Below are positions 2,686 through 22,742 of a DNA stretch of 64,000 nucleotides, one piece after another (position 1 is the first letter of the stretch; every line of letters begins with the position of its first letter). The notes beneath the pieces were generated by a model. That model did no database searches and was not told the DNA's origin. It was given only the letters and a program-made list of their open reading frames with translations. Source of the DNA: Tubulanus polymorphus (taxonomy: Eukaryota > Animalia > Nemertea); the NCBI RefSeq assembly GCF_964204645.1, contig NC_134028.1, positions 16,561,653 to 16,625,652 on the forward strand. The letters run 5' to 3'. The translations under genes were made by a program, and so were the position numbers.

Positions 2686-3147
2686 AGTAATAGGGAATAT
2701 GTTGTTTCATACCAAAGGTCGAAATGTCGAGCTCATAAAAAATGAAAAATATGAAAATAATAACAATTTCTATTTGAATTAGTAGCGAAACTCATATAAA
2801 ATGAAAAATAATTCTCGCACACTCGAATTTATTTTTCATTTTATATGAGTTTCACTCCTAATTCAAATAGAAATTATTATTATTTTCATATTTTTCATTT
2901 TTTACTCACTAGCCCTTTCAACCTTTGATATGAAACAAGATATTCCCTATTACTCTTAAAATATTCATATATATGAATAAAATATAAATTAATAACTTCT
3001 AAAATCAATTTTAATAAAAAATTTAGTATTAAAATGGAAGCAAATAAGTACTACTGTCCAACATGTAATATCAATATAGATAAATCCCAAAAATCAAGAC
3101 ACAATAAAACTAAAACACATTTAGAGAATAAATTGAAACTAGAATAT
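2686..3147 (+). repeat. Left TIR (462 bp) containing a 269-bp imperfect palindrome (2686-2954)
   Basis: Reverse complement of 21421-21882 with few mismatches; AGTAATAGGGAATAT at 2686 pairs with ATATTCCCTATTACT ending at 2954. Confidence 0.95.
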
Positions 3148-3261
3148 TTACAGTTATATTCAGAACAGTTAACAAAGGCAAAGAAATTTATTGAATTATG
3201 GAATAATGATCCAAATAATGAACAATACGTTGAGGAATTTGATATCAAGGATATGATTTAG
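3034..3261 (+). CDS. Chimeric 75-aa ORF: pPolB N-terminal Zn finger (inside the TIR) fused to a copy of the HNH-protein C-terminus
   Basis: First 38 aa are identical to ORF 21151-21534; the remainder (LQLY.EQLTKAKKFI..WNNDPNNEQYVE) duplicates 4064-4151. Confidence 0.65.
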   Translation: MEANKYYCPTCNINIDKSQKSRHNKTKTHLENKLKLEYLQLYSEQLTKAKKFIELWNNDPNNEQYVEEFDIKDMI

Positions 3262-3497
3262 ATATTTCATGTCGGTTGTTTCTATTTACATAATTATATA
3301 TAATTATGATTAGCGCATGCGCATTAAGCAAAACCGCGCATGAATGCGCGCTTTTGCCCAGTGGTATTATTTAGATATCAAGGAATCGAAACTGACTTAT
3401 CAAAAGCAGCGAGGAATGAAAAAGGATGACGTTGGTCGAAGAAATGGTAGAGGATTCTAAAATATTAACCAATTTAGTAAAAAAATACGTATAATAA

Positions 3498-4169
3498 ATG
3501 GAACCAGAACAACCACAAATCATCAATATTACAAATAACACTGCTGGTGTTATAAATATATACTACAAGAAGTGTTCTAAATGTGAATTAGATAAATTAG
3601 CTTTAACAGAATTTAGTAAGCGTAAGATTAGCAAAGATGGTTTTCAATATTGCTGTAAAACTTGTTTTAAACTATATACCAAACAATATCGAGAAGATAA
3701 TATAGAACATTATAATTATTATATGGCAGAATATATGAGAGAAAGATATCAAACAGATCTTAATTTTAGATTGAAACAATGTTTAAGATCTAGATTAACA
3801 CAATTATTCAACAAAGAAACACATTCAGAAACATTATCTAATTTGTTGGGTTGTTCGGATGAATTTTTCAAATCATGGATAATATATCAATTCGATGATA
3901 AAATGAATATAGATAATTATGGGGATTATTACCATATTGATTATGTGTTACCAATATCTAAATTTAACATGAATGATGAATACAATAAAAAACTAATTTG
4001 GAATTGGAAGAATTTAAGGCCTTTAGAAAAGAAGGAAAACATAATTAAATTTAATAAACTAGATTTACAGTTATATTTAGAACAGTTAACAAAGGCAAAG
4101 AAATTTATTGATCAATGGAACAATGATCCAAATAATGAACAATACGTTGAGTCTTTAATGAGTGGTTAA
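3498..4169 (+). CDS. Zn-ribbon plus HNH/endonuclease VII-like nuclease of the type common in large DNA viruses
   Basis: CSKC...DG...CKTC, LGCS..FF..WI..QF...MN..NYG.YYHIDYVLP...WNWKNLRPL...EN; the usual HIDH reads HIDY here. Confidence 0.7.
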   Translation: MEPEQPQIINITNNTAGVINIYYKKCSKCELDKLALTEFSKRKISKDGFQYCCKTCFKLYTKQYREDNIEHYNYYMAEYMRERYQTDLNFRLKQCLRSRLTQLFNKETHSETLSNLLGCSDEFFKSWIIYQFDDKMNIDNYGDYYHIDYVLPISKFNMNDEYNKKLIWNWKNLRPLEKKENIIKFNKLDLQLYLEQLTKAKKFIDQWNNDPNNEQYVESLMSG

Positions 4170-4393
4170 AGAATAATAGATTTTAAATAAAAAATATTAA
4201 AAAAACAATAACTTCAACTAGCTAGTGAATTCTACTATATTTTTAATATTTTCTTTTCAAAAAAGAATACTTTATATCACAAATAAAAAATACTAAAAAA
4301 ACAATAACTAATACTAAAATTCTTTAGCTTTAACTAGCTAGTATCATTTGAAGAATACTTATAATATTTTTCTTGCTTTTTTCTCTAATATAA

Positions 4394-5002
4394 ATGTCAA
4401 AGAAATCGAGTAAGAATAATATTGATATTGAAAAAACATTAGATGATTTGGGCATTAGTGATAATAAGGATATTCCGGCCAAAATTGAAAATAATATTCA
4501 AGTTAATTGTAATATAGATTATGAATACTATTTATATTGTAAACACCATCTTGAACTATTGATTGCTAGCGGGAAGTGTAAACAATTTTTAACTAAGACC
4601 ATTACTTTTCAAGAATTAGATGCTATGAAACAAGATGAAGTAATAAAATATTTTAAGATTTATGAAGAGTCAAGATTAGCTAGAATAAATGATTCTATTT
4701 CAGATGGTATTGTCAAATGTTATTCTAAGTTATGTAACCAGTTAATGCCAATTGATGATGAAAATAAATTATATAGTGATTTGAAAAGTGACTATTTAGT
4801 TATGACTGAATTACAAAAATGGGTTGGTTATGCTTCATTCCAATTAGGATCGGTTATGACATTAATTTCTACTGGCGTCATTACATTTTCGAACATCAAG
4901 CCTATGGAATATAAATCAGGTAAGAACGAAACAGATGTACTACAACCAAACAGTGAAACAGAAAATGAATCAGAACAAAAATTAACTAAAATAAATGAGT
5001 GA
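4394..5002 (+). CDS. Polinton hypothetical protein (202 aa) with a hydrophobic segment near the C-terminus
   Basis: Intact ORF with T6-N8-TAAATG start; overlaps the next gene; no motif recognised. Confidence 0.7.
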   Translation: MSKKSSKNNIDIEKTLDDLGISDNKDIPAKIENNIQVNCNIDYEYYLYCKHHLELLIASGKCKQFLTKTITFQELDAMKQDEVIKYFKIYEESRLARINDSISDGIVKCYSKLCNQLMPIDDENKLYSDLKSDYLVMTELQKWVGYASFQLGSVMTLISTGVITFSNIKPMEYKSGKNETDVLQPNSETENESEQKLTKINE

Positions 5003-5366
5003 TGGCGTTAAGAAAAAGGCTAGATCAGAGAAACAAATTAAATGGGCAAGAGAATTAGGTAAAAGATCTTCAGAATTAAAAAAAGCTAAGAAAAAGAAAT
5101 TAACTGGTATAAATGAATCACAGACTTTATCTGATATTAATTCAAATAATAATCCATCTAATTCTTCTAATCCTGGAAGTAATTATAAATTATATATTAC
5201 AATTGGATTAGTAACAGTTATTATATTATCCGGTGTAATATATAAATATAAGTATAAATCTGATTATAACAATAATGATTCCGATGACAATAAACCTATC
5301 ATACCAAATAAGTCAAATGATAAAGTCATTGAAAATAAGATTATAAGATTATTATTAATGGATTAA
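4995..5366 (+). CDS. Small basic protein with one predicted TM helix
   Basis: Basic N-terminus and LYITIGLVTVIILSGVIY; intact homolog at 27619-27984. Confidence 0.8.
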   Translation: MSDGVKKKARSEKQIKWARELGKRSSELKKAKKKKLTGINESQTLSDINSNNNPSNSSNPGSNYKLYITIGLVTVIILSGVIYKYKYKSDYNNNDSDDNKPIIPNKSNDKVIENKIIRLLLMD

Positions 5367-5611
5367 TTAAGATGAAAAAAGAACAGTATTTAAGAGATTT
5401 ATATTATAACCCAGAAAGTGAAGTATCATATTCTAACGTTTCAGAATTATGGAATAAAATTAAATCTGATAATGAAAATGGTAAAATAAAATATAGTGAA
5501 TTAAAATCATGGTTACAAAATCAACCAACATATCAAATCCATAAGAAAATGGATAAAAATTATTTAACAAGAAAAGTTATGGTTTCATATATCGATCAAC
5601 AATGGCAAGCA

Positions 5612-6980
5612 GATTTAATTGACATGCAGAACTTAGAAGAATACAACAAAGGATATTTCTGGATACTGAATGTTATAGACATATTCAGTCGATACGCATG
5701 GTCAATTCCAATCAAAAATAAAACTGGAATAGAAGTTACAAATGCTTTTAAATCTATATTTAAAGAAGCTATTCCAGATAAGATACAATTTGATGAAGGT
5801 AAGGAATTTTATAAGAAACATTTCAAAAAACTATTATCTGATAACGATGTAGATTATTTTTCAACACACTCAGATAAAAAAGCATCTATTATAGAAAGGT
5901 TTAATAAAACATTGAAAACTAGAATGTGGAAATATTTTACTGCTAATGAAACATATATTTATATCGATGAGTCTATAAATATATTAGATGATTTAGTGAA
6001 AGGTTATAATAATTCTAAACATTCAAGTATTGGTATAATCTTATTTTCAATGACTTTATCATTTGACTTATTTGGTATGATAGGTTTATTGTCATCGGAA
6101 TCATTATTGTTATAATCAGATTTATACTTATATTTATATATTACACCGGATAATATAATAACTGTTACTAATCCAATTGTAATATATAATTTATAATTAC
6201 TTCCAGGATTAGAAGAATTAGATGGATTATTATTTGAATTAATATCAGATAAAGTCCAAATTCTCCAAATTTAACTCTCGACTTCCAAATCTATTAATCG
6301 ATTTAATTGACATGAAGAACTTAGAAGAATACAACAAAGGATATTTCTGGATACTGAATGTTATAGACATATTTAGTCGATACGCATGGTCAATTCCAAT
6401 CAAAAATAAAACTGGAATAGAAGTTACAAATGCTTTTAAATCTATATTTAAAGAAGCTATTCCAGATAAGATACAATTTGATGAAGGTAAGGAATTTTAT
6501 AACAAACATTTCAAAAAACTATTATCTGATAACGATGTAGATTATTTTTCAACACACTCAGATAAAAAAGTATCTATTATAGAAAGGTTTAATAAAACAT
6601 TGAAAACTAGAATGTGAAAATATTTTACTGCTAATGAAACATATATTTATATCGATGAGTCTATAAATATATTAGATGATTTAGTGAAAGGTTATAATAA
6701 TTCTAAACATTCAAGTATTGGTATAATCTTATTTTCAATGACTATATCATTTGACTTATTTGGTATGATAGGTTTATTGTCATCGGAATCATTATTGTTA
6801 TAATCAGATTTATACTTATATTTATATATTACACCGGATAATATAATAACTGTTACTAATCAAATTGTAATATATAATTTATAATTACTTCCAGGATTAG
6901 AAGAATTAGATGGATTATTATTTGAATTAATATCAGATAAAGTCCAAATTCTCCAAATTTAACTCTCGACTTCCAAATCT
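5612..6980 (+). repeat. ~690-bp tandem duplication (5612-6292 and 6300-6980); each unit has integrase core, a 220-bp inverted copy of 5123-5345 and the first ~36 bp of the Penelope element
   Basis: Direct comparison: 6034-6256 and ~6722-6945 are the reverse complement of 5123-5345; ORF 6312-6617 repeats the integrase core. Confidence 0.9.
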
Positions 6981-8605
6981 TCCTTATGCTTATGGTCTTC
7001 CAAAAATTCATAAACCCAATTCACCGTTAAGACCGATCATTTCTAATATCAATTCTCCATCATATCGGCTCTCCAAATATCTGGCTAAAGTACTCTCCCC
7101 GGCTTTGGGTACTTTTTCTGATTCTCACATTCGTCACAATATGGATCTTTTAGACAAACTCAAAAATCTCAAACCTAATGGACAGAAATTTATATCTTTC
7201 GACGCTGTTTCCTTGTTCACTAATAAACCATTGGAACCAACTCTCAATTTCTTAAGAAGAAAACTCCCGGACTCCAATCTTGATCTCCCAATTCCTGTAG
7301 AATGTTTACTTGAACTTTTGGAACTCTGTACTACCAATTTATATTTCCGATTCCAAGACAAATTCTATGAACAAATTTTCGGTTTCGCTATGGGTAACCC
7401 ATTATCCCCGATTTTGGCTAATCTTTTCCTTGAACACTTTGAATCCGAAATTCTCCCTAAGTACGCTGGCTCTAAACCTAACTTTTGGATTAGATATGTT
7501 GATGACATTCTGAGCTTAGTTTCTGATAATTTTGATCTTTCCTCTTTTATCGACTTCATCAACTCCCAATATCCATCTTTGAAATTCACTTTTGAATGGG
7601 AACAAAATGACCAAATTCCGTTTTTAGATGTTCTAATTCACTATAAATTTTCTCATTTGATTTTCTCAGTCTACCGTAAACCGATCAACGCCGAGGCATA
7701 CCTTCACTTCTTTTCGTTTACTGCCAAATCAATCAAAATCGGTCTCGCTCAAGGCCTCTTTCTCCGTGCACTGCGGATCTGCGATGAAACCTTCCTTTCG
7801 GCTGAATTTGACCATATATCCAACTCTCTTAGAAAATCGGCTTACCCTGATCACATTTTGAAAATTGCCATTTCTAAGGCTAAACGTACTTTCTTCAATT
7901 CTAAACCTCCAGAAAATAAAAAACACATTTCAGAGTTCATTGTAGTTCCGTATGTACCTGTTTTGGAAAATTTTCGTCACTCTCTCCCTTTATTGGATAA
8001 ACAAATCATTTTCACGTATGAAAACAAAATTAGTAAGACTTTGGTTAAAAACAATCAATCTAAACCTTTGGACTGCGGAGTTTACAAAATTCCTTGTTTT
8101 GGCTGTGATGAAATTTACTTTGGAGAAACTGGTCGTGCTTTAAAAACTCGAATTTCGGAACACAAAAAGGATATGATAAATCAAAAACCGGCTAGTGGCG
8201 TAGCCAATCACGTTTGGAACACTGGTCATCGTTTTAATTTTGATAAAGCCGAAATTATTTATACTTCCAGCAATTACACTAAACGCCACATAGTTGAGTC
8301 TGCCCTAATTACTCGTCACTCAGATATTAGTACCAATTTAAATAATGGCTTTTCTCCGCATAATTCCTTTCTTTCTAAGTATATTACTTCATGCCTTGCC
8401 AAACACTAATTATTTACTCACTCACCAATTTGCTCAATTAACCTGTCCTCCTCTGTATATATACCCCTGTTTTAAGTCTATTTCTCACACCTGACGATGA
8501 TCTCTAGGGTGAGATCGAAACGTCGTGTCTTTTAAATATTTTAGATTTAATAAATAAATTCTTGTTTTTAAATTCTTTTAATCTGTAAATAGTGGGATTT
8601 TATCT
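6945..8605 (+). mobile_element. 5'-truncated Penelope-like retroelement (RT plus GIY-YIG endonuclease; ORF 7105-8409, frame open upstream)
   Basis: YGLPKIHK..PLRPIIS, SFDAVSLFT, GFAMGNPLSP, RYVDD, PFLDV, VYRKP; GVYKIPC..C...YFGETGR.L..RISEH; 3' pLTR region with hammerhead; TATTGGTAT duplicated at both sides. Confidence 0.95.
8486..8529 (+). ncRNA. Minimal type I hammerhead ribozyme in the Penelope 3' pLTR region
   Basis: CACAC-CTGACGA-T-GATCTC/TAGGGT/GAGATC-GAAAC-GTC^GTGT: core CUGANGA, stem II, GAAA, GUC cleavage triplet (cut after 8524), stem I ACAC/GTGT. Confidence 0.85.
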
Positions 8606-9045
8606 TATTGGTATGAAACCTATACAAGCTAGAAAAGAAGATAATTCGGAAATAGTTTGGAATAATTTATATGGTGTGTTTGTAACATATGATTTTGGAG
8701 AACCTAAATTCAAAATTGGACAACACGTTAGAATATCTAAATATAGAAAAACATTTTATAAAGGTTATACCCCTAATTTTACCGAAGAAATATTCAAGAT
8801 TAAAAAGACAATATTAACTAAACCATTTGTTTATAAATTAGAAGATCTAAAAGATGAAGAAATATTAGGTTATTTCTATGAACAAGAATTATCACTTGTA
8901 CCAAATCCAGATGAAATAGAATACAAAATAGAAAAAGTATTGAAAACAAAAACTCTTAAAGGAAAAAAGTATTCTTTGGTGAAATATAAAGGATACGATG
9001 ATAAATTTAATGAATGGATTTTATCTAGTAAAATTAAAAGAATAA

Positions 9046-9657
9046 ATGAATAAAGATTTATTAATATTTGAACCGCATAATATGTTAGTTACTGGTGTAA
9101 CCAATTGTGGTAAAACACATTTCATATTAGATTTGTTAGAAACTATTTATAAGAATCATTTTGATAATATAATATTATTTTGTCCTACTTATGAAATGAA
9201 TAAAACATATAATAGAGATATAGTTAAGATGAAAAAAGTTATTATATTAGATCCTAAAACAGTAAAAGAAAATTTAGATAATTGTATTAAAATAGCAATT
9301 GATACTTAATAAGGATCAAATACATTATTCATTATAGATGATTGCGCAAATTTACATGATTCAAAAGTGAGAGAAAGTGAGTTATGTTATTTAGCTTTCT
9401 CTGGGAGACATTTCGGGATAACAACATGGGTTTTAAATCAAAAATATAATTCAATTGTTAAAGACTTTAGGGAGAATATAAGATTTCTAGTTTTATTTTA
9501 TAACAAAGATAGAAAATCTATGCAACAATCATTGGAAGAAAATCAAATTATACCTACTGAATTACATGATGAATATATGAATAAATTAAAGAATAATAAA
9601 GGTTCAAAATTATTACTGAGACTACATTTTCCCTATGAATATAAGTTTATAAAATAA
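9046..9657 (+). pseudogene. A32/FtsK-HerA-like genome-packaging ATPase with an in-frame stop at 9307-9309
   Basis: Walker A VTGVTNCGKT, Walker B FIIDDCA, GRHFGIT...Q motif. Confidence 0.9.
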
Positions 9658-9676
9658 CTATTTATATATCTATGTA

Positions 9677-9770
9677 TTAGATACCCTATTAGATACCCTA
9701 ATACCTGATACCCTATTAGATACCCTAATACCTGATACCCTAATACCTGATACCCTATTCGATACCTTAA
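9677..9770 (+). repeat. Tandem GATACCCTA(ATACCT/TTA) array between convergent gene blocks
   Basis: About seven GATACC(C)T units; a related array (GTATCTAATAC)n sits at the equivalent position of the outer element (~25930-25975). Confidence 0.8.
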
Positions 9771-9947
9771 ATACTTAAAACCCCCTTTTTTATTTACTAT
9801 TATTTTATACAATTTTCAACCTTTATTATTATTTGAGTGTTAGATAATCAATTTCTGAATCACTTTCACTATCAGACCCCCCTAACAATTTATTCAAATT
9901 CTCTACCGTATCTTCTTCTAATTCTTTATTATTTTTATACTTATTCT

Positions 9948-10697
9948 TCACCTTTTTACCGAATCATCAATAGTTGTTTCATTGTTATGCTTATTCATCC
10001 AATCAAATTTATCTTTATTATCAATGCGCTTTCCTGTATTTTCATTATTATCTTTATTAGTGTTTGCTCCTAATATTTCATTTACAGTGTTTGATCCTAA
10101 TATTTCATTAGCATCGGTTAAATCTAATTCATCTTTATTAGGTGTTGCTAATAAAAAATCTTCATATAATTCTTTACCATTTACTTTTTTATTTGAAACA
10201 AATTTTGTAACATATCTAAATGGGTGTTCTATAAATTCTCTTAAACCAACACGATCTATTACATTAGTAATATGTGAATTTGTATTCATATGTTTATTCC
10301 AATTTGATGGAGCGTTTGAAAATTCACCTTTACAATAATCACAATAATTTCTATTTTCACTAACATTTAATATTATTGCATTATTATATGTAGAAGGTAT
10401 TACATTATTAGATGTAGAAGGTATTACATTATTAGATGTAGAAGGTATTACATTATTAGATGTAGTAGGTATTACATTATTAGATGTAGAAGGTATTACA
10501 TTATTATCAATTACATTACTTAAATTATCAACAACACTACTTTTATTATTATCGATTTCTATTAGTTTAGTTTTATAAATTTTGAAAATAGGATCAAATA
10601 TCAAAGCTATATTACAAGGTATTACATAATATAAACCATCATTATTTTCATGTGTATCGATGTATGGAATATGTTTTAATACTTCACCTCCTTCCAT
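9948..10697 (-). CDS. Polinton accessory protein with five 8-aa (NNVIPSTS) repeats and a C2H2/matrin-like Zn finger
   Basis: 24-bp tandem repeats at ~10381-10505; YCDYCK...WNKHMNTNSH. Confidence 0.75.
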   Translation of the reverse strand: MEGGEVLKHIPYIDTHENNDGLYYVIPCNIALIFDPIFKIYKTKLIEIDNNKSSVVDNLSNVIDNNVIPSTSNNVIPTTSNNVIPSTSNNVIPSTSNNVIPSTYNNAIILNVSENRNYCDYCKGEFSNAPSNWNKHMNTNSHITNVIDRVGLREFIEHPFRYVTKFVSNKKVNGKELYEDFLLATPNKDELDLTDANEILGSNTVNEILGANTNKDNNENTGKRIDNKDKFDWMNKHNNETTIDDSVKR

Positions 10698-10729
10698 TTA
10701 ATATAAGATTTTTTATTAAAGTTAAAATT

Positions 10730-11977
10730 TTAATACATAACACTATCTAATTGTGAATTTACAATATTTAATTGCGCGTCAGATATAATATAAATGTGCA
10801 TTTTGAAATTTAGACTTCCTTTTTTCTTTTTCATGAATAATTGTATTCCATCTTTAGTGTTCTGTAATTTTTTTCCAGAACCATGTAATGAATTATCCTC
10901 TGTTGTTCTAAAATCTAACCATAATGCATATTTATTACCGGTATAATAATCAATTTGATTAATATTACAATTTTCAGATGATTTTACTTTTTCATTCATA
11001 AAATGTTTTCTAATTTCTGGCCATTGATCTATCATTCTCATTCCTTGACAAAATATTTTATTTTCTATTCCTTTGATAGTTATTTCTACTTTTGTTATTT
11101 CAGGATTATAATACTTATCGACCTGTATTGCGCCATTAGAATATGTTGCAATGGTAAGAAATATTAATATACCTTTAATAGATCTTCTTGGGAAGTTAAT
11201 ATTCTCATTAATAATTTCATCATTTGCATTAATAGTTACGGTTTTAAATTTATCAATATAATCATATAATAATGAAAATCCTTGATTGTATTGAGTTTGA
11301 ATTATGCTTGAAATATTTTCATTAGTTACTGTGTCATATTCTAAACATATATTCGATAATTTATAACTCAAATCTTTAACAACGCTAGATAATACAATTT
11401 CATTTACAGGAGCAAAAGTTATTTCGAATATAACGTCTTCTTGAATTGCGTATTTATATAAAGGTGCATTATTATTTATCAATTCAAAGTCTAATGGAAT
11501 TTTATATTTGCTTCCATAAATCTTTTTTATCAAATTATCTGCGGTACGAGTTACTATTGCGTCATTAGCTCCTGATCTTAATTTATTATGGTTTTCCGAT
11601 TGAATGCCCTGAAATATCATATTATTTCTATTTTCTTTAGTTAACCATAAATCTTTATAATGCATAAATAAATTATAATCATCTAATGAGAAAACTGTTT
11701 CTGGACCAATCTTTATTGTTAACTTTTTAATCAAATATCTTCCAACATTATCAACAACATAATTGTTATCATGGCCAGTTACTTTTATATCAGCTGATAA
11801 ATAAATACTATTTGGAACATAAAAAGTATTTTGTGTTAATCTCGGATTTCTAACATATAAAGTTTCATCAGGATTAATATTAGAAGGGTTATGAGTAATT
11901 ATATGATGTGATCTTTCTGCTTTAATAGCATTAGATATTCTATGATTCTTAGAAGGATTGATATAACTCCCACTCAT
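10730..11977 (-). CDS. Putative major capsid protein (double jelly-roll expected), intact 415 aa
   Basis: Size, beta-rich composition (LIKKLTIKIG, YKIPLDF, VIFEITFAP, YKLSNICLEYD, FPRRSIKGILIF, YALWLDF), strong conservation with the outer copy and Polinton context; fold assignment is inferred, not computed. Confidence 0.72.
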   Translation of the reverse strand: MSGSYINPSKNHRISNAIKAERSHHIITHNPSNINPDETLYVRNPRLTQNTFYVPNSIYLSADIKVTGHDNNYVVDNVGRYLIKKLTIKIGPETVFSLDDYNLFMHYKDLWLTKENRNNMIFQGIQSENHNKLRSGANDAIVTRTADNLIKKIYGSKYKIPLDFELINNNAPLYKYAIQEDVIFEITFAPVNEIVLSSVVKDLSYKLSNICLEYDTVTNENISSIIQTQYNQGFSLLYDYIDKFKTVTINANDEIINENINFPRRSIKGILIFLTIATYSNGAIQVDKYYNPEITKVEITIKGIENKIFCQGMRMIDQWPEIRKHFMNEKVKSSENCNINQIDYYTGNKYALWLDFRTTEDNSLHGSGKKLQNTKDGIQLFMKKKKGSLNFKMHIYIISDAQLNIVNSQLDSVMY

Positions 11978-11997
11978 TTATTTAACAAAAAAATTAA

Positions 11998-13448
11998 TTA
12001 TTTATTTTTAATCATGTTTACTAACCCAAAAATAATAGCACTTACAACTGTAATTAAAAATAAAATAATATGTTCAGCAGCAAAGTTAATAATGTTTCCT
12101 GCAGATTTCAATAGAAAACCAACAATTGATGCAATAATTCCTGGTAAAGCTGCAGCAGATTTCTTTGATAGTTCCCATAAATATTTTGCTAATTTCTTTA
12201 AACCATCCTTAACTTTATCTTGTATTGAATTATTATCTGGGGGTTTATCTGGTTTATTGGGAGTAGGGAGTAGATTTTAAAGCATTTGATATTGCTAAAC
12301 CAATTGTTGTAAATAACATAGTTACAGCTGTTAGAATTGAAAGAATTGTTATTCCTTCAAACTTAAATAATAATTTTTATTCTATCTTTCAATGATATTC
12401 TAGAATCTGGTTTTATTAGATATCTTTTAAAAACATCTTTTAATCTATTAATATTATAATCATATGATTTTAATAATAATTTAATTTCTTCGTTTTGTAA
12501 TTCTATGTTATATTCTAAATCATCTTTTTCTTTTCTAAACGTAATTCTTTTTGCCTATATTCTATTTCATCAAGTAATTGATGATCTAAATCAGACTTTA
12601 ATTGTTCTATTTCTTTATTTTTATCAGTCAATTCTTTTTCTAAAGTTCTAATTTTTAAATCTCTTATTTCTTTTTCATGCGCAATTTTATCAGATGCATG
12701 TCTTATACTTTCAATTTCTCTTATTGCTTTACCAGAAAATATATCTAAATCCTCTAATTCTTGTTTTGTTGCATCAAGTAATCCCTTCGGTAAAAGTTTT
12801 TCAGTTTGAACTTCTCTTGAATTAGGTCTACTAGTTTTGGAAGTTTTATTCTGTTCAGAAGTTGTTTCCGGTTCTAAATTATTATCGATTGTTTCAAATA
12901 AGTCATTAATTCTTTGTTTAAATACTCTTTTATTTTGATTTATTTCTTCTTGTGTTACATCTTCTATTTCATTACTATTATAACTTATTCTTTTAATTCT
13001 ATCTGGCTCTAATTTTTCCAAAGTTGATCCTGCTAATATTTTGTTTATTTTTATAAGAGATGTTAATATAATAATCATCTTTCAATTTATAATAATATTC
13101 ACCATCTAAAGATTTTAATTCTTGTACTAAAAGTCTAGCGCCTCTATCATTTATATTATATCCAGATTCTTTAAATACATGTTGAAAATCATACATAAAT
13201 TCAATATTTTCTAAATTTTGTCTTACTAAACCTTGATTTTCATTTTCAGGATTTATTCTCGATCTAGTTCTTCTATCAAATTCATCTGTTGATTGGCCTT
13301 TAGAACCACTATCTGCTAAATTAGAATTATATGCTGATTCATCATCATTATCAAAATTAGTTTCTGCATCATTATAATCATCATCAATATATCCTTCATT
13401 ATTATTTCCCATGTCATCCAATGGAATATCTTCTCCACCTTCTGCCAT
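11998..13448 (-). pseudogene. Large acidic/coiled-coil protein with C-terminal membrane segments (frameshifted; ORFs 12999-13448 and 12515-13078 plus tail)
   Basis: MAEGGEDIPLDDM start, heptad region, then GITILSILTAVTMLFTTIGLAI and LPGIIASIVGFLLK...HIILFLITVVSAIIFGLV on the - strand. Confidence 0.75.
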
Positions 13449-13461
13449 TTACATAAAAAAA

Positions 13462-14850
13462 TTAAAATTCAAAATATAATATTCCTCCGATTACAATTCC
13501 TATACAAGTTATAGATAATTTAGTATTTTCATGGGATTTATTATCATCATTTATTTTAATTATTTCATGTTGAATATTATCAGTTTTTATATTTTCTGAT
13601 GTATTATAATCTTTTATTTTAGAATCATTATTTAATTTAATATCATTAGTTTTAGTTTCTGTTGATTGAATATGTTTTTTATTTTTTTCACCTTCCATTA
13701 ATTTTGGAGCAGTAATAATCTTTTTATTTGTATCATTTAAACCAAATGAATTATTCATTGTTGCAGTTTTAATTAGATTATTATAACCAATTATATTTCC
13801 CATCTTTAATACTAAATCATTAGAAATAATTAATAGATTAGGGCCTATACAATAATTTAATCTAATATGTGATTTATCTAAAAAATTTTGATATCTTACA
13901 ATGTTTTCTGGAATCGATCTATTTTTATCATTATGAATTGAATCTTCAAATAATACTTTAAATTGTTTTTGTGTATCGAATGATGTATTTAAATTTCCAA
14001 TTATTGGGGATCTTGTTTCAACTTGTGCACCTAAAATACATATCAAATAAGTTCTAATAGATTGATTTATTCTTTGTAGACCTGATTTTGTAAAACCTTC
14101 ATTATTTTCTAAAATAAAATAAACCCAACCATTATTGTTTTCTTGTTTTAAATTATCATAAAATGTCGGTAATTTATTGAAATTTAATGTTTCTAAATCC
14201 TTAGTTTCTATTTTACCATAACCTAATTTATTACTATAGATATTATACAAACTATTAGATGGTATGGGAAGTGCACAATATTCTGCAATCTTTTTAGGGC
14301 AAGGAAGTGATCTTATTGTTCCAATTTTTGTTCTAAAATCAGAATTATTTATATCTATATTAAATTCATTACAAATTTTATAAAACTTTGATAAATTAAT
14401 ATTATTATCTAATTCTTTAAAATACCTAGATTCTGGTAAAGCGCACTCTAATTCATTTAATATTATTCTGATTTGAAAGTATGTATGAAATCTATATAAA
14501 CTTTGAATTAATTTATATTTAGACTTATTCAAATGATCATTCCACTTAATTCCACAAACTGTTGTTGCACAATAAACAGCAAAATTTAATTGGTTCTGCC
14601 AATACTTCATATTAGATTTTAATAACCATGGTTTTTCATCTTTCAATTTTTTAAAATCAATTAAATATACATGAAATATATTTTCCATCTTTGCATTCAA
14701 ATTATTATTTTCAGTAACATAAATTTCTAAATTAGTTAATGAATCTAAAACTTCATTTCTATATGTAATATCTTTATTAAAATCTATTGCTGGAATATTA
14801 TATTTAATTGATTTATTATATTGGAAAGCTTTTGGAAAACTATCTACCAT
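13462..14850 (-). CDS. Polinton hypothetical protein (462 aa) with C-terminal TM anchor
   Basis: Intact ORF, TAAATG start, WQNQLNFAVYCAT and YRFHTYFQIR blocks, terminal ITCIGIVIGGILYF. Confidence 0.75.
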   Translation of the reverse strand: MVDSFPKAFQYNKSIKYNIPAIDFNKDITYRNEVLDSLTNLEIYVTENNNLNAKMENIFHVYLIDFKKLKDEKPWLLKSNMKYWQNQLNFAVYCATTVCGIKWNDHLNKSKYKLIQSLYRFHTYFQIRIILNELECALPESRYFKELDNNINLSKFYKICNEFNIDINNSDFRTKIGTIRSLPCPKKIAEYCALPIPSNSLYNIYSNKLGYGKIETKDLETLNFNKLPTFYDNLKQENNNGWVYFILENNEGFTKSGLQRINQSIRTYLICILGAQVETRSPIIGNLNTSFDTQKQFKVLFEDSIHNDKNRSIPENIVRYQNFLDKSHIRLNYCIGPNLLIISNDLVLKMGNIIGYNNLIKTATMNNSFGLNDTNKKIITAPKLMEGEKNKKHIQSTETKTNDIKLNNDSKIKDYNTSENIKTDNIQHEIIKINDDNKSHENTKLSITCIGIVIGGILYFEF

Positions 14851-14866
14851 TTATATAATTAAAAAA

Positions 14867-15301
14867 TTAATAATTTATTAATTCTTTTAATAAATTATCT
14901 TGTTCTTCAACTGTTATATGACCATTTAAACTTATTATATAATCTAGTGTATTCTTCAATTTATTAATCTCTTTTATATTAGTTTTCATTTTTTCTTTAT
15001 TACTTTTTATATTTAATTTTGAACTTATACCAGTTAAAACACTTGATGATAATCCTAACAGACCAATTGATATAGCTAAAGGTGTTAATGGACTGAATAT
15101 TGCTAAAAATGTTATTACAGAACTAATTGTAACCGAACCACTAATCATGAGATAATATATAATTTTACTTTTTAAATACTTTTTCTTTTTTATCTTTAAG
15201 TCACTTTCAAATTCTAATATTTGTTTTTCTAAATATGTTTTTAGTTTAGTTTTATTTATATCATGAGGAATAATATCAATATTATCAACTTTATCTTCCA
15301 T
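14867..15301 (-). CDS. Two-TM membrane protein with flanking coiled coils
   Basis: IIYYLMISGSVTISSVITFLAIF and LAISIGLLGLSSSVLTGI; T8-N6-TAAATG start. Confidence 0.75.
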   Translation of the reverse strand: MEDKVDNIDIIPHDINKTKLKTYLEKQILEFESDLKIKKKKYLKSKIIYYLMISGSVTISSVITFLAIFSPLTPLAISIGLLGLSSSVLTGISSKLNIKSNKEKMKTNIKEINKLKNTLDYIISLNGHITVEEQDNLLKELINY

Positions 15302-15321
15302 TTATTTAGCAAAAAAAATTA

Positions 15322-15744
15322 CTAATTAGTAAATTTATATGCTACAAATATAACAATAACTGTTCCACCTAAAATCCATATTATTTCATATTTCTGTTGT
15401 TCTTTACTCGGGGTATAATAATCTGATAATTTAGGTCTGTATAGATGTAATTTTTCTTTATTGGTTACCGCGTTATATAAACTCATTGCATCATCAACTG
15501 ATTGAAAATCTCTATGCGAAATCTTCTGATCATATAATTCTTTATTGATGTAATCCATATAGTTTTGTCGTTTTTCTCTATATTCTTCTGCTGCTTTATT
15601 ATATTTCTCTAATGCTAAGTTATGTCTTCTTTGTTCTCCTAATGAACTATTTTTATCAATATGCTTAAATAAATATCCACCATCAGTAAATGCTAAAGCG
15701 TTAACAATTGCCGATCCTATAATAGTTATAATTGCAGAAGCCAT
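15322..15744 (-). CDS. Small protein with N- and C-terminal hydrophobic segments
   Basis: MASAIITIIGSAIVNALAF ... IIWILGGTVIVIFVAY; T7-N6-TAAATG start. Confidence 0.75.
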   Translation of the reverse strand: MASAIITIIGSAIVNALAFTDGGYLFKHIDKNSSLGEQRRHNLALEKYNKAAEEYREKRQNYMDYINKELYDQKISHRDFQSVDDAMSLYNAVTNKEKLHLYRPKLSDYYTPSKEQQKYEIIWILGGTVIVIFVAYKFTN

Positions 15745-15768
15745 TTATTTAGTAAAAAAATTATGCAT

Positions 15769-15990
15769 TTATATGGGAGGAATAAATTTTTGTTTTTCCA
15801 AATAATCAATAGTTAAATTAGATAAAGTAACTGCTAAAGTTAATTTTAAAATATCATTTATATCAAATCTATCAACATTAACACTTCCCATTTTGAATAC
15901 TTTTTTTAATACCATTGAATAACCAACAGTTCCAATTGATAGTAATGCACCATTATATAATCCAGTTATTATCCACTTATTATCACTCAT
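15769..15990 (-). CDS. Small hydrophobic protein (73 aa)
   Basis: IITGLYNGALLSIGTVGYSMVL; T7-N6-TAAATG start. Confidence 0.7.
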   Translation of the reverse strand: MSDNKWIITGLYNGALLSIGTVGYSMVLKKVFKMGSVNVDRFDINDILKLTLAVTLSNLTIDYLEKQKFIPPI

Positions 15991-16347
15991 TTATTTATCA
16001 AAAAAATTACTATCTTCAAAATATTTAGTTATCTTATTTATAATTATTTCAACATTTATTTCATTACTAGTTTCATTTGTATATATTTCAATTATTATTT
16101 TTTTAATATCATCGATGATAAAATCTTCATCTAATTCATAAAATCTTAAAGATTCTCTAATTAAATTAGTAATCTTTTCTACATTTAAAGTTTCTTTATC
16201 TATTGTTGTTTCATACTCAAATGTTGTTTCATTAGAAAATACAATATTTTTGATTTGTGTAATTACATCATTAATGTCAAATTTCATTTCTTTCTCATGT
16301 TTAAAATCAAACCCAAAACATATACTCGGTCCAACAGTTATATTCAT
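15991..16347 (-). CDS. Small acidic hypothetical protein (118 aa)
   Basis: Intact ORF tiling the gene block; T6-N8-TAAATG start. Confidence 0.65.
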   Translation of the reverse strand: MNITVGPSICFGFDFKHEKEMKFDINDVITQIKNIVFSNETTFEYETTIDKETLNVEKITNLIRESLRFYELDEDFIIDDIKKIIIEIYTNETSNEINVEIIINKITKYFEDSNFFDK

Positions 16348-16364
16348 TTATATAGTGGAAAAAA

Positions 16365-17120
16365 TTACTCTCTACATCTTATAACTAATTCATATATCAC
16401 AGAAAAGTTATTCAAATCAATTAGATATCCATTATGATTTCTTATTTCTAATTTAAAATTATTGAATTTAGGAATGCATGGTTTGAAATCACATTCTGTT
16501 AAATTATAATTTATTTGAGTTCGAAATTGTTTAACATTTTTTAATGGTAAAATATTTAATATACTAGAATTACAAATTGTTTCTTTAGTTGCTTCGAAAG
16601 TTTTTGTAGGCTCGATTAAATTGCAATAAATATGAAAGTGTGTAAAAGGTATTATATTTGAGCTGCCTTCTGCGTTTCCAGTAACTGTAAGAGGTTTAAT
16701 TCCTAAAATTTTAGCCAGTGGTTTGTTTACCATAAATTTATGTTGTTCATTAGATATCTTTATTCTTATTTTATTAGTACTATCAATTTTATTAAATTTA
16801 ATTTCAAATACAGAAGTGCCCCCGATTTTCAACCGAGCTCTTCTATTAATTTCCTGCGCTAATGATTCTAAATTATATAATCCTGGTTTTAAAAATATAT
16901 GAAACCATTTATCTTTATTTCTCATATAAATCATAAACCCTCTATGTTCAAAAGTTTTATCCGATACATTGTAAAAAGAATTACATAAACTTATATTAAC
17001 TAATTTTAAATCTACACAATTCTTGAATTCTCTATCTAATTGTACTAGTAAATCATGAGATTTATAATTTGTAAGCCTTCTAGAATCAACAAATATTCTG
17101 TATTCTTTTAATTCCACCAT
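16365..17120 (-). CDS. Putative minor capsid (penton, single jelly-roll) protein
   Basis: IFVDSR...SFYNV...PGLYNLESL...LAKILG...HIYCNLI...SILNILP...LEIRNHNGYLIDLN...ELVI pattern typical of Polinton/PLV minor capsid proteins. Confidence 0.78.
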   Translation of the reverse strand: MVELKEYRIFVDSRRLTNYKSHDLLVQLDREFKNCVDLKLVNISLCNSFYNVSDKTFEHRGFMIYMRNKDKWFHIFLKPGLYNLESLAQEINRRARLKIGGTSVFEIKFNKIDSTNKIRIKISNEQHKFMVNKPLAKILGIKPLTVTGNAEGSSNIIPFTHFHIYCNLIEPTKTFEATKETICNSSILNILPLKNVKQFRTQINYNLTECDFKPCIPKFNNFKLEIRNHNGYLIDLNNFSVIYELVIRCRE

Positions 17121-17137
17121 TTATTTTACATATTTTC

Positions 17138-17491
17138 TTATTCGAAATCTATTTCATGATGCCCCTTTTCATTCTTACCTTTGTATACGAAATAGAAATC
17201 ACCAGAACATAATTCTTCTAGGTCTTCACTTGATAATCTATGAAATCTATCTGGTAAATATGTTCTGAATTTATATGTATTTCCTTTTAATCCTTCATAT
17301 TCTAAGTGTATAACTAATTTATCTACATATTTGTTAGTAATTGTATCAATATTTGTAATAAGATATTTCTTATGGATTATTAATTCTTTTAACTTCTTAA
17401 ATTTATAATCTACTGATTTGACATTTGAAGTATCTTTGATTCTATCTAGAAATGATTTGTTGTTCTCACTGTGTGTTTGTTTACTCTCCAT
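17138..17491 (-). CDS. Small Polinton-associated protein next to polB (possible OB-fold)
   Basis: FKKLKEL...KY.IT...TNKY..KLVIHLE...TYLPDRF...FVYKG; fold is inferred only. Confidence 0.6.
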   Translation of the reverse strand: MESKQTHSENNKSFLDRIKDTSNVKSVDYKFKKLKELIIHKKYLITNIDTITNKYVDKLVIHLEYEGLKGNTYKFRTYLPDRFHRLSSEDLEELCSGDFYFVYKGKNEKGHHEIDFE

Positions 17492-17520
17492 TTATAATAC
17501 ATATTTTTACTAAAATTTGA

Positions 17521-20500
17521 TTAACACGTTAGAATTCTTTTCATTATCTCGTTCTCTTTTGTTTCTTCTCTTTTAGATTTTAAGTATTCATCTAAATTAC
17601 AACCATAAGCAACTGTATGAATTCCATCATCTAAAATATATCTTTTATCATCAAATGGGTTTAGACTTACCTTTTCAATTTCTTCAATAAACATTTCATG
17701 ATCTTCATATCTTAAACATCTCATCTTATGTTTTCTAACTTCTTCATTGAATATACAATTGATGTAATCTTTGAAATGAATATTCTTTTCTACTACACTT
17801 TTGGTTATTCCTTTTAACTTTTTAGCTTCATGTTCTTTAGTTTTATATGAATACATTTTAGATCTAATACCTATGAATTCAATCATTTCTTCACCACCTA
17901 ATTCATCTTTGAATTTACCGGGAACTTTTTTATTATCATTGCTAAAAAATTCATGATTTTTAGGATAATTACTGAAATCAAAATGATGTTTTAATGTTTT
18001 TAAATCATCAGTTATGTTATCAGTTTTTATCTTTAATATGTAACTGTCGGTATCAAAATATAATATTTCTATATGTTTTTCTCCAAAAAGTGGTTGTAAT
18101 ACATTATAATAGAATTCATACATTAGTAATTTTGATAATTCTAAAACTGAAGCGCCAACATAGATTGGTTTATTAAATTTCATTGATGTTCTTCTCATTT
18201 TAACTGCAGCTAAATTTTCATCAAATATTCTGTTACCAATGAACTTAGGATATGTTTGTAAATGTCTAATTCTTTTACCATTACTGACTAACTCAATATC
18301 ATTTCTATTTCTAATATTTTCACAAGTCTTGCCATAGAATGCATTATTCATTAACTTGAAGAAATCTTTTTCGAAATCAGTTTTAGCTTTAGTTCTCTGT
18401 TTGGTGTTAAAATCTATATATTTTTCTAACCACTTAGATTGGCTGAATGAAATATATCTACGTACTTTTTTTAGAATCATTCCTTGTTTTAGATAAAACT
18501 TTAACATTCTGTAATGTACTACATAATTATATTTATCTTCTTGAGTTACCATTAACTTTTCTGTATGAATATGATTTTCGGGTTTAATTTTTTTTTGGTA
18601 ATTTGATAATTCTTCATGAGTTACAGTTTTATGTTCTTGACAGTAAGCTAGATTTCTTGATTTAAATTTTTTATCTTCAGGATATTCTAAATCTACATCA
18701 AAGAAGTAACCAGTATCTGAATCATCTGCAATATCTAGAATTCTTTTCTTCCAATCAAATTTATCATTATTTTCATTCTGTAAAACTTCAGTTAATTCAA
18801 ATACTCCATAAGGTTGTGGTTCCATCATTGCCCAACCATACAAATTATTTGCATCTATATATAATAACTTATATCCGGGGTTATCATTTACATTGAAATA
18901 TCTATCACCTAATACACCTGAAACTCCTCCTCTTATAGATTTTTCAAATAATAGTAATTGATCTATATTTGTTAACAAATCCATTTTTATATCTGTAAAT
19001 TTCAATCCACGATCCCATGTTAAACCTGGTGATGAATAACAATGGCAAGGATCAATGTTAAAATATTTTAGGTTTACATCTCTAAACCTTTCGAATATAT
19101 CGGTTAATAATAATACATCAGATTTTAAATATATATATATATACTAATTGCCCATGATTTTCTATTTTGAAATGATTCCAAATATTCAATGTTCTATTAT
19201 ATACTTCATCTTTAACATATTCATTTTTTAATTCATCATAAAATTGTTCTTTTAATAATTCAGTTATATTGAAATCATTATGTGATTTATAAAATGAATA
19301 TGGAATTGCTCCTTTATATCTCATTAATTGAAAATCATCATTATTTGGATGGTGTTGTTTTAATATTTTTAATTCTTCATCAACTAATGATTTTGATAAG
19401 TTATCTAATGAACTACCTAGAAACCTATATGAATCTATAAATCTTAGACACCCAAATTGGAAAGATATATAATTCTCAGATGTTTTAGCTAACATTCTAA
19501 ATTTATAAGTTGGTATTTTAGCAACATCTTTTGATCTATATGAATTTAATCTTTCTATTTCATTATTAATTTCTTCTATCTTATGGCACAGTTGCTTGAT
19601 GAATAAATGTGCATCATATCCTGATAGATTATGAAATATAACTGGTACAAAATTAATTTTCTTAGCTTGTAAGTTACAATTCTCATGTGCAGCGCCTCTA
19701 AACTTTCCATTCAAATGATCATGGTCTCTTACTTTTTTATCTTTATAATTAAATATCTTTTCACAATAATAACATTTATCTGCAAACGCAAATTCTTTAT
19801 TTGTATTCAATAATTTACTAAATCTTATTTCATATTCAATTAATAAGTCACAAAAATGATTGATAACATTTTCATTTCTATAATGATAATATTCACTTTC
19901 AATTAGTTCTGGATAATCAGATTTAATATATAACCCGAAAGCTGCAGCTGATTGATGAATCTTTTTAATAGTATTTGTTTTTGGTGGTTCATCTGAAAAA
20001 TCATTTTCATTAGAATTTAATTTCTTTCTTTTATAATATATTTCTTTTCTATCTTGATCAGTTAATTCTTTATTTAATGATTCAAAATCTCCATATATAA
20101 CAAATGGTACTTTATTTTTGTAATCATATTTTTTGAATTCTAATATTTTATCCTTTTCATTTGGTAAAACTAATTTACAATAATCATGATTTTCACATAA
20201 TTGTTTATGATTTAATAATGCACTCTCATTACTGAATTTATGTAAACATTTTCTACATAGATATATTTTACGAGCATAATCATTTTCTGATTTAAAAAAT
20301 AAATCAATTTGTTTAATCCACATATAATGATTTTCATAATATAGTATATCTATAACATCGTTTGAATCATAATCATTTGATAGGTATAAAGGTTCTAATG
20401 TATAATGTTTTATATTGTTACCTTTTGTTTTTGGTAATTTGATTAAATCGAATACATTTATCTTTATATTATTATCTCTTTCTATTTTTGGGATATTTTT

Positions 20501-21534
20501 AATTCTAACAGGATACTTATCTATCTTATAATTATTTTCAAATGGTTTATAATGAGTTAATCTAAAACTATGTGTAATATCTTCTGTTGGATGTAAACAA
20601 CTTATTATAGCCCATAGAAAACATTTATCATCAAAATTTTGTACATTTATAACAGCATTAGTTTTAAATGGTAGTTTAATATAACTCGATGCTTCAATAT
20701 CTGGTTCTTTATAATATGATACATTATTTTCATCAATTGGTTTCGATTTAGTTAACTTATTATATTTTGTGTTATAAACATGTCAAGTCATAAATATTAT
20801 TTCATCAAATATTAGACCAGATCCTTCAAAATATTTCTCTTCTATTTTAGTTTTTACTTCATTATAACATTTATCTAATTTATCATCTATATGTTGTTTT
20901 GAAATAATATGTTGTGAATGAGAATTTATATTATATATTGGTTTATCTTCAGATTTTATGAATTTAACTTTAACTGATATACTAATTTTAGGATATTCAA
21001 CATCAGTTATTATTTTTATTATTTCTTTCATATTTTCTAAATGTTTTTTATTTTCTTCTAATGTTTTTCCTTTATGAAATTTAAACTCGATAGCTGCTGG
21101 ACCAATATCACTTTTAAATGCTTCGGTTATCTCTATATCTTTTTTATTATCTAATGAATTAATATAATTTCTTCCATGTACGGTCTTTTATTGTTTAATT
21201 TATTTCTTATTCTTTTAATTGTCTTGTGTTTCTTATCATTATCTTTATCAATATGATCTTCACCTAAAATATCATTATTCTTATTTCTAGTATGACTTTT
21301 AGATTTTAAATGTTCATTATAATATCTTTTATCACTGAATGATTGATTACATGTATCACATTTGTATGTTTCTTTTTCATTCTTTAATTCATCTAATTTA
21401 GTTTCTAATATATCATCTTCATATTCTAATTTTAATTTATTCTCTAAATGTGTTTTAGTTTTATTGTGTCTTGATTTTTGGGATTTATCTATATTGATAT
21501 TACATGTTGGGCAGTAGTACTTATTTGCTTCCAT
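17521..21534 (-). pseudogene. polB: Protein-primed family B DNA polymerase with N-terminal Zn fingers and an inserted endonuclease VII-like Zn domain; several frameshifts
   Basis: ExoI VIYGDFES, ExoII FHNLSGYDAH, Pol A YIDANNLYGWAM, Pol B KLMNNAFYGK, Pol C YFDTDS; CYYC...VRDHDHLNGKFRGAAHENCN; split over four ORFs. Confidence 0.95.
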
Positions 21535-21882
21535 TTTAATGCTAAATTTTTTATTAAAATTGATTTTAGAAGTTATTCATTTATATTTTATTCATATATA
21601 TGAATATTTCAAGAGTAATAGGGAATATCTTGTTTCATATCAAAGGTTGAAAGGGCTAGTGAGTAAAAAATGAAAAATATGAAAATAATAATAATTTCTA
21701 TTTGAATTAGGAGTGAAACTCATATAAAATGAAAAATAAATTCGAGTGTGCGAGAATTATTTTTCATTTTATATGAGTTTCGCTACTAATTCAAATAGAA
21801 ATTGTTATTATTTTCATATTTTTCATTTTTTATGAGCTCGACCTTTCGACCTTTGGTATGAAACAACATATTCCCTATTACT
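21421..21882 (-). repeat. Right TIR (462 bp) with a 269-bp palindrome (21614-21882); includes the polB start
   Basis: Reverse complement of 2686-3147. Confidence 0.95.
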
Positions 21883-22742
21883 AATATGACACAGTAACTG
21901 ATGAAAATATCTGAAGCATAATTCAAACCCAATATCATCAATTTAAAATTGTAACTATTAATGCAAATGATGAAATAATCAATGAGAATAGTAACTTCCC
22001 AAGAAGATCTATTAAAGGCGTATTAATATTTTTTACAATTGCAACATATTCTAATGGCGCAATAAATGTTGATAACTATTATAATCCTGAAATATCAAAA
22101 GTAGAAATAACATGTTACACGCGGGTCAAAGACAAATCCTCAGATGTGGAGTAAACGTCCAAGCTAACAAGAAACTGCCAACAACGGCTATAAAACAGCG
22201 CGACACTTTAATAGCTCCAAGAACGGCCTAGGTCTGACTGACTAATACAAGCCCGGCAGTGGTATATATATGAGCAGGCATTAAGGAGGCGCAAATTGTG
22301 ACAGCTGGATTAAACCAGTGAACCACTGCTGGAAATGCAAGTCAGCCAGGCAGTACAATACAACTCTTACAATATAATACCAGGTAACAAACAATTGAAG
22401 GTATAGCAAATAAAATATTTTGCCAGGGAATGAGAATGATTAATCAGTGGGTAGAAATTAGAAAAAATTTTATGAATTAAAAAATAAAGTCATCTGAAGA
22501 TTGTAATATAAACCAAATTGATTATTATACCGGTAATAAATATGCGTTATGGTTAGATTTTAGAACAACAGAGGATAACTTATTACATGGTTCTGGGAAA
22601 AAACTACAGAACACTAAAGATGGAATACAATTATTCATGAAAAAGAAAAAAAGGAATCAAAAATTTCAAAATGCACATTTATCTTATATCTGACGCGCAA
22701 ATAAATATTATAAATTCTCAATTACACAGTGTTATGTATTAA
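21883..22742 (+). pseudogene. Outer Polinton major capsid gene, 3' part
   Basis: Continues EYDTVTDENI from the TSD through FPRRSIKG, YALWLDFRTTEDN and HGSGKKLQNTKDG to VMY*. Confidence 0.88.
22113..22389. mobile_element. Solo LTR (277 bp) with 4-bp TSD
   Basis: TGTTAC...GTAACA ends, AACA at 22109-22112 and 22390-22393; removing it restores capsid codons VEITIEG. Confidence 0.85.

Follow-up and report, generated by a model that had tools for sequence, protein, structure and literature searches.

Group 2 Maverick-Polintons (Polintoviricetes; the adintoviruses of Starrett et al.) share AG...CT inverted ends, a 6-bp target-site duplication, and genes for a protein-primed polymerase (pPolB), an rve integrase, an A32-like ATPase and a double-jelly-roll capsid protein and, as described in the accessible part of one study, have no protease and show swaps of the polymerase for a helicase (10.64898/2026.06.19.733378). 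For animal Mavericks/Polintons, neither the mode of expression nor the choice between autonomy and parasitism on larger viruses is settled; a virophage role involving iridoviruses has been proposed for animal Mavericks from host ranges, with no virion seen, according to the available portion of PMC8097293. Neither a promoter nor a helper is described, and the word ‘promoter’ is absent, in the available portions of three works on group 2 Polintons (PMC8502044, 10.1101/2023.08.22.554363, 10.64898/2026.06.19.733378), and the word is likewise absent from those of 10.64898/2026.10.13.758929, 10.1101/2024.03.23.586382 and 10.1101/2025.04.19.649669. Here, we analysed a window of 64,000 nucleotides (nt) from the nemertean Tubulanus polymorphus (NC_134028.1, forward-strand positions 16,561,653 to 16,625,652; coordinates below are those of the window), in which a Maverick/Polinton integrated at 2686-21882 carries TAAATG over the start codon of nearly every gene. 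This start signal is a trait of one Polinton clade and likely a positioned promoter element, and we lean, cautiously, towards a co-infecting virus as the source of the RNA polymerase that reads it, namely a large cytoplasmic DNA virus of the poxvirus type.

A Maverick/Polinton virus survives at 2686-21882 as a decayed copy in the genome. Its 462-bp terminal inverted repeats, 98% complementary, begin with AGT and end with ACT (left repeat, 2686..3147 on the forward strand, internally palindromic and containing the polymerase start in mirrored form, as open reading frame (ORF) 3034-3261; right repeat, 21421..21882 on the reverse strand), and identical 6-mers at 2680..2685 and 21883..21888 form the 6-bp target-site duplication. 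Between these ends lie genes for a protein-primed polymerase, an rve integrase, a double-jelly-roll capsid protein and an A32-like ATPase, in a copy that is 75% A+T and measures 19 kb including an insertion. We assign it to group 2 from its gene content: as in that group, no protease was detected, and a helicase takes the place of the polymerase among its relatives. The adenovirus-type cysteine protease of group 1 Maverick-Polintons was not found by Pfam in the ORFs of the element or in the scanned gene families of relatives. Four genes of the copy are broken, namely those for the integrase, the ATPase and the polymerase and the conserved gene of family c3 at 12007-13448, damage that went unmentioned in the initial annotation of this DNA; because of it, the present copy cannot itself be the inducible provirus that the annotation had envisaged.

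Mavirus and the endogenous Mavirus-like elements (EMALEs) of Cafeteria are likewise integrated, likewise encode an rve integrase and pPolB, and likewise vary in promoter type from one element type to another, one of the motifs being the late promoter of the helper, as the accessible text of PMC8547959 describes. These virophages have a protist host, a virophage capsid, a TCTA motif, a known helper and demonstrated reactivation, whereas the nemertean element has a Polinton capsid and TAAATG and is known from sequence alone. The initial annotation also referred to elements associated with entomopoxviruses, and Polinton-like viruses that co-occur with entomopoxviruses and are found in occlusion bodies have indeed been published (Barth et al. 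2024, PMC11296320), but their gene content differs: by the available description, they are about 12 kb long and encode an adenovirus-type protease and no rve integrase, compared with 19 kb, an rve integrase and no protease here, and neither ‘promoter’ nor ‘motif’ occurs in the accessible main text. Giant-virus reactivation of Polinton-like viruses has been shown in an alga, according to the part available of 10.1101/2025.10.09.676808.

In the element, TAAATG stands at 14 of the 16 gene starts (3498, 4394, 4995, 9046, 10697, 11977, 13448, 14850, 15301, 15744, 15990, 16347, 17120 and 17491), the two exceptions being the integrase (5372, TAAGATG) and the polymerase (21534, mirrored at 3034 in the left repeat, TAAAATG); on re-reading, every one of these positions agreed with the initial annotation. 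Since no internal ATG in frame can come after TAA, the first ATGs after a stop codon were chosen as the null. TAAATG was found at 179 of 3016 such ATGs (5.9%) under an order-2 Markov model and at 14 of 206 (6.8%) in the other short ORFs of the element, and the probability of 14 out of 16 under this null is 7e-16. ORFs of at least 100 amino acids (aa) in the transposon-rich section at 28.5-61.6 kb, which are not true host genes, had no TAAATG start (0/22). Upstream of the 14 starts, the seven T-runs and spacers quoted earlier are exact, but T-runs of at least 5 occur in only 8, an A-tract occupying the same place in the other 6; T is found at -12 in 13/14, and positions -16..-12 are A/T only in 14/14. 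Spacers between neighbouring genes, initially given as 0-30 bp, are -8 to 32 bp for the most part, rising to 224 bp before 4394 and 236 bp before 3498. The five further TAAATG attributed to two other Polintons are all present, those at 1650, 22775, 26595 and 27984 in one older copy and that at 61738 in a third Polinton.

The signal extends well beyond this copy. As relatives we took the best 80 of 186 metagenome loci by capsid alignment plus 3 from genome bins (designated by L numbers), and counted gene starts in ORFs of at least 100 aa. The loci are bimodal, with TAAATG at 77/86 starts in 21 loci and at 2/337 in the other 62. In the capsid tree (80 rows), a split with support of 100 has on one side 20 TAAATG, 4 other and 5 unlabelled loci and on the opposite side 44 other and 7 unlabelled, and the ATPase tree (50 rows) is congruent (10 TAAATG and 4 other versus 36 other). 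The trait reaches capsid proteins just 32-37% identical to that of the window (L030, L077-L080). TAAATG loci range from 20 to 44% G+C, the motif being kept at 44% (L007), and 16 sister loci of 26-39% G+C have no TAAATG start at all (0/59), so that base composition is not its cause; the enrichment implied by the initial annotation thus stands against both the null and the AT-rich sister loci. No relatives were retrieved from IMG/VR or the phage set by capsid and ATPase queries.

For the anatomy of the signal, we compared 95 distinct TAAATG starts (from the window and 20 loci, leaving out L002 and L014) with 167 non-start TAAATG from the same loci. The layout at starts is bipartite, with A at -18..-16, T at -15..-12, a free spacer, A-rich bases and then TAAATG. 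T at -12 is found in 85% (81/95) of starts versus 29% of non-start occurrences (p=2e-19), and -16..-12 is A/T only in 79/95 versus 40/167; at -11..-8 and -25..-21, the 95 starts and the 167 non-starts are alike. The core is kept relative to the ATG in 15/18 starts overlapped by the upstream gene, 23/25 lying 6-30 nt from it, 17/22 lying farther away, and 21/25 in divergent gene pairs, where two TAAATG starts stand 14-30 nt apart. TAA doubles as the stop codon of the upstream gene in 7 of 97 TAAATG starts, and TTTTTNT comes after only 1/32 gene ends in convergent pairs and 1/27 in distant tandem ones. Given the fixed spacing between core and ATG, the rarity of TTTTTNT at gene ends, and the small number of cases in which TAA is the upstream stop, the terminator and stop-start readings fail. 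TTTTTNT was also rejected as a terminator signal on another count, its depletion in coding strands (observed/expected 0.5) being matched by T/A runs generally and by control branches. The bipartite TAAATG signal is likely to be a positioned promoter element.

In the accessible text of PMC11980589, vaccinia late promoters place TAAAT followed by G across the start codon and have, at the 10th nucleotide upstream, a conserved T amid weaker ones, whereas vaccinia intermediate promoters combine TAAA with an upstream tract that leans towards A (also PMC5294985, likewise in part). By these published descriptions, the Polinton signal and the vaccinia late promoter have in common TAAAT(G) over the start codon and an upstream T-rich core, and the A-tract cores of Polintons can be likened to the A-rich upstream variant of intermediate promoters. 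The resemblance to late promoters pointed out initially has thus held up, and it now concerns a bipartite, positioned and clade-wide signal. Unlike that of vaccinia, the Polinton signal sits on an element that lacks an RNA polymerase of its own: no credible Pfam match to an RNA polymerase or TBP was obtained in the element or in the unassigned ORFs of relatives, the largest of which have <500 aa, and no poxvirus RNA polymerase subunit was found among 30 unassigned ORFs or for the 118-aa gene at 15991..16347. The yeast pGKL virus-like elements, which are also protein-primed, have a TAAAN initiator and poly(A) leaders made by slippage, but, as far as the available part of PMC6211774 goes, differ from the Polinton in that they encode an RNA polymerase and a capping enzyme of their own, lack both capsid and integrase, and use an upstream sequence of the early type.

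We propose, with somewhat more confidence than doubt, that the signal is a promoter and that its RNA polymerase is supplied by a co-infecting poxvirus-type member of the large cytoplasmic DNA viruses; dependence on a helper from among large DNA viruses of whatever kind is rather probable. Transcription would begin inside the AAA of TAAATG, and slippage of the polymerase, described for initiation in AAA in vaccinia and in yeast elements (PMC6211774, accessible part), would give the message a 5′ poly(A) leader in place of the unfavourable T at -3, each gene forming a message of its own. In active members, the DNA would be copied by the element’s own protein-primed polymerase, packaged in its own capsid and integrated by its own integrase. 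The overall scheme would be a virophage life cycle run on the RNA polymerase of a helper virus, and the clade-wide TAAATG signal would represent a new case of virophage-type promoter matching.

A series of observations weighs against this proposal. The T peak lies 9 nt upstream of TAAAT in Polintons (85%, with 74% at 10 nt) and at the 10th nucleotide in vaccinia, and the label ‘pox-like’ rests on the T core together with literature descriptions of poxvirus promoters. No gene was found to link the clade specifically to poxviruses, the kinase and HNH genes having only distant matches in other giant-virus contigs (three giant-virus-like loci, 32-37% identity, with TAAATG at 2/36 of their ORFs). 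The split of A-tract and T-tract cores by gene class, comparable to that of intermediate and late promoters, was found in the window (p=0.003, the set in which it was discovered) and in four close relatives (p=0.002, orthologous and hence not independent), but is missing in distant relatives (p=0.77). AATAAA is not avoided in coding strands (observed/expected 1.01, with 0.93 and 0.86 in sister branches) and does not separate the classes. Two IMG/VR motif scans for a helper (21 and 55 loci) brought up no poxvirus and no locus with a TAAATG majority, the highest shares, 3/6 and 7/15-16, belonging to iridovirus-like loci; the single-promoter scan, with 9 of its 55 loci matching at an ORF start, gave no pervasive TAAATG and no recognisable poxvirus. 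A helper also leaves unexplained the route by which a nuclear copy comes before a cytoplasmic polymerase, and the copy number of the family in the species, roughly estimated at the order of hundreds from read depth in one DNA run (about 90-1300 over the element versus 0.5-4 in the lowest neighbouring bins), is easier to explain with helper-free movement. Finally, the division into 21 and 62 loci was drawn after the motif had been seen; the trees alone do not depend on it, and of these the capsid tree is a quick one.

The same helper-dependent cycle might instead rely on an invertebrate iridovirus or another nucleocytovirus, a reading that we regard as unlikely. A scan with the divergent-promoter pattern of the Polintons retrieved iridovirus-like contigs (capsid E 9e-120 to grouper iridovirus), and TAAATG occurs at 51/162 distinct starts in 29 invertebrate-iridovirus-like loci and at 93/464 in 52 more distant ones; because these contigs use TAAATG too, the motif alone does not imply a poxvirus. 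Furthermore, a gene at 1462-2097 of the iridovirus-like contig L100 is homologous to the SLATT-like membrane-protein family c9 of Polintons (E 1e-23), which points to possible gene exchange, and iridoviruses have been proposed as helpers of vertebrate Mavericks (PMC8097293, part available). However, in the iridovirus lineages sampled, the two signals differ: AATAAATG stands at 49/51 iridovirus TAAATG starts versus 38/95 in Polintons (p=2e-12), and T at -12 at 19/51 versus 81/95 (p=5e-9). The c9 homologue is closest to non-TAAATG elements, at 23-31% identity. The SLATT-like protein of the window gave a single weak, stop-containing match against one iridovirus-like record. Taken as described in the review literature, vaccinia late promoters appear to agree with the Polinton signal better than those of invertebrate iridoviruses do. 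In the invertebrate-iridovirus-like genomes (L100, L106, L108-L134), about 31% of genes start with a near-invariant AATAAATG, without the T core.

We consider it about equally improbable that host RNA polymerase II, guided by an element-encoded factor, transcribes the element in the nucleus, the likeness to poxviruses being then inherited or convergent and a helper not needed. The high copy number would suit such a route; the factor could hide among families c2, c3, c4 and c16, which have no assigned function, and a VLTF3-like late transcription factor is encoded in L050 and L056. Against it, no VLTF3- or TBP-like gene was detected in the TAAATG loci, the contigs of which are partial, and an initiator over the start codon would leave no 5′ leader, while a T at -3 is unfavourable to the translation of host-type messages. 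As the polymerase gene likewise bears the signal, an early class is not obvious, and the coding strands contain 3.2 AATAAA per kb, equal to codon shuffles, which would carry a risk of premature cleavage, although this is a weak argument as the controls are alike. Quite improbable is that TAAATG serves translation, by stop-start coupling or as an A/T leader on polycistronic RNAs, with the T-runs as terminators of upstream genes: TAA is the upstream stop in the 7 of 97 starts noted above and several T-runs of the window directly follow a stop codon, but 25/95 starts are divergent and have no same-strand upstream gene, the core being retained in most of these, TTTTTNT is as rare after convergent and distant tandem gene ends as reported above, and the helix-like fixed spacing between core and initiator suits a DNA-binding promoter. 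Chance in DNA of 75% A+T, combined with the bias of first ATGs after a stop, is hardly credible; TAAATG does occur 50 times in the element, but the null rate of 5.9-6.8% falls far below 14/16, and the motif is absent from the gene starts of the 16 sister loci and is kept in loci of 40-44% G+C.

Other branches of the group have start signals of their own. L050:623-9361 (and L051) is nested in the same capsid clade and yet has a different signal, a T-rich tract followed after about 10 nt by TATA(G/A) 1-15 nt before the ATG, in 8/12 starts. This combination of T-rich core and TATA initiator resembles the asfarvirus late promoter, with TATTT at -15..-11 and TATATA at -1..+5 in the accessible part of PMC5294985. 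The VLTF3-like protein is a weak match in L050 and a clear one in L056. In the 16 AT-rich loci of the other branch, T plus 3-8 As precedes the ATG at 28/59 starts, an initiator-like variant; its AT-rich members include L016, L017, L020, L022, L023, L031, L044, L056, L057, L081 and L082. Within the GC-rich loci (L018-L076), genes with divergent heads often have TTCAA directly ahead of their ATG, those further downstream overlap from stop to start, and AATAAA lies near only 5/230 gene ends; these loci are possibly expressed polycistronically by yet another route. ‘Kozak-type’ was discarded as too coarse a label for the starts of other branches. It is conceivable, and we suggest it tentatively, that group 2 animal Polintons are an old virophage radiation whose branches differ in the large DNA virus whose promoter code they carry, one of poxvirus type for TAAATG plus T core and one of asfarvirus type for the T core plus TATA of L050.

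If this is true, the kind of helper could be told from the start signals found in animal genomes, which would also predict unseen pox-like viruses of invertebrates and mark intact copies as a possible inherited antiviral defence. A clade-wide promoter makes the question of autonomy directly testable, with the codes of sister branches as built-in controls. The literature searched, a body that leaves subscription journals largely outside, yielded no account of promoter motifs for animal Polintons.

The gene order of the element begins, on the forward strand, with a zinc finger plus HNH-like endonuclease gene (3498..4169, A-tract core), the relative of which in L001 matches Pfam HNH weakly, the conserved core gene of family c2 (4394..5002, T6 core), and a small protein with one hydrophobic stretch (4995..5366), the TAAATG of which lies within the upstream ORF. 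Next come the interrupted retroviral-type integrase with a C-terminal chromodomain (5372..9053; PF00665, E 4e-9) and the A32-like packaging ATPase (9046..9654; PF04665), which contains two in-frame stops and has its TAAATG inside the integrase ORF. The integrase is disrupted by duplicated/inverted DNA and by a Penelope-like retroelement foreign to the Polinton (ORF 7141..8409, forward strand), identified as a reverse transcriptase by Pfam and devoid of TAAATG; its C-terminus, with no Pfam match, we take by eye to be GIY-YIG-like. The start of the integrase departs from TAAATG in most relatives, the exact motif being found only in L001 and L030 among seven loci (window 5372 and 27612; L001, L003, L004, L005, L030 and L078), and such a start may damp integrase expression.

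The remaining genes lie on the reverse strand. A zinc-finger protein of family c16 with 24-nt repeats (9948..10697, A-tract core), for which a representative search for relatives mostly matched the repeat, is followed by the double-jelly-roll major capsid protein (10730..11977, T7 core), an open frame whose model (predicted local distance difference test score, pLDDT, 86.6) matches iridovirus and chlorovirus (PBCV-1) capsids in Foldseek (E 5e-16); a clam homologue of 38% identity is the sole eukaryote-named one among the matches listed. Then come the conserved core genes of families c3 (12007..13448, T core), with frameshifts and stops, and c4 (13462..14850, T6 core), a SLATT-like two-helix membrane protein with a weak Pfam match (14867..15301, T8 core), and two conserved small core genes, of families c5 (15322..15744, T7 core) and c7 (15769..15990, T7 core), the latter hydrophobic and with a TAA that doubles as the upstream stop. 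The 118-aa gene of no known family (15991..16347, T6 core) has an N-terminus in common with a syntenic gene of L003. The beta-rich protein of family c17/c8 (16365..17120, A-tract core), a family found across the group, is likely the minor capsid (penton) protein, although the model, folded without an alignment, has a pLDDT of 32 and does not confirm the fold; the notion that c8 is restricted to the non-TAAATG branch was ruled out by its homology to this gene. A possible single-strand DNA-binding protein (17138..17491, A-tract core) is indicated by a strong Atlas lead to a cluster that is 44% phi29 SSB. Last is the protein-primed polymerase (17521..21534), a gene in pieces whose fragments are 29-42% identical over about 1090 aa to a protein of L019 that itself matches PF03175.

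Several relatives have gene contents of their own. Two TAAATG-clade Polintons encode a deoxynucleoside kinase (L003:10340-10981, L008:2895-3380), that of L003 having close relatives on short contigs only and 30-38% matches elsewhere. Replication modules are mosaic: L030:8186-12388, a TAAATG locus, has a different, strongly PF03175-positive polymerase, and an SF1-like helicase replaces the polymerase in L018, L046 and L047. L081, L082 and L083 are short contigs with the capsid family that sit in genome bins of bacteria and archaea; they are likely eukaryotic viral DNA that was mis-binned.

The element interrupts an older and decayed member of its own family that runs in the opposite orientation (from before 863 to 27984); the insertion splits the capsid gene, and the older copy accounts for the first four of the additional TAAATG mentioned above. 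The end of the third, more distant Polinton occupies 61654..64000 on the forward strand, its left end placed by eye, and the polymerase start at 61738 combines a T8 core with TAAATG. The other neighbours in the window are, by Pfam, Helitron, LTR (long terminal repeat) and Penelope-like elements, among them a 24-nt tandem array with a decayed Helitron at 30525-37033 and a decayed LTR retrotransposon at 46964-51941 whose direct repeats at 46964 and 51642 are identical. The terminal repeats of the element contain AAAANTGAAAA, given as the early consensus of poxviruses in the accessible part of PMC5294985, at 2738, 2902, 21666 and 21830; this sequence is lacking at the end of the third element and has six further occurrences elsewhere in the window. 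The internally palindromic segments of the terminal repeats span 2686-2972 and 21596-21882.

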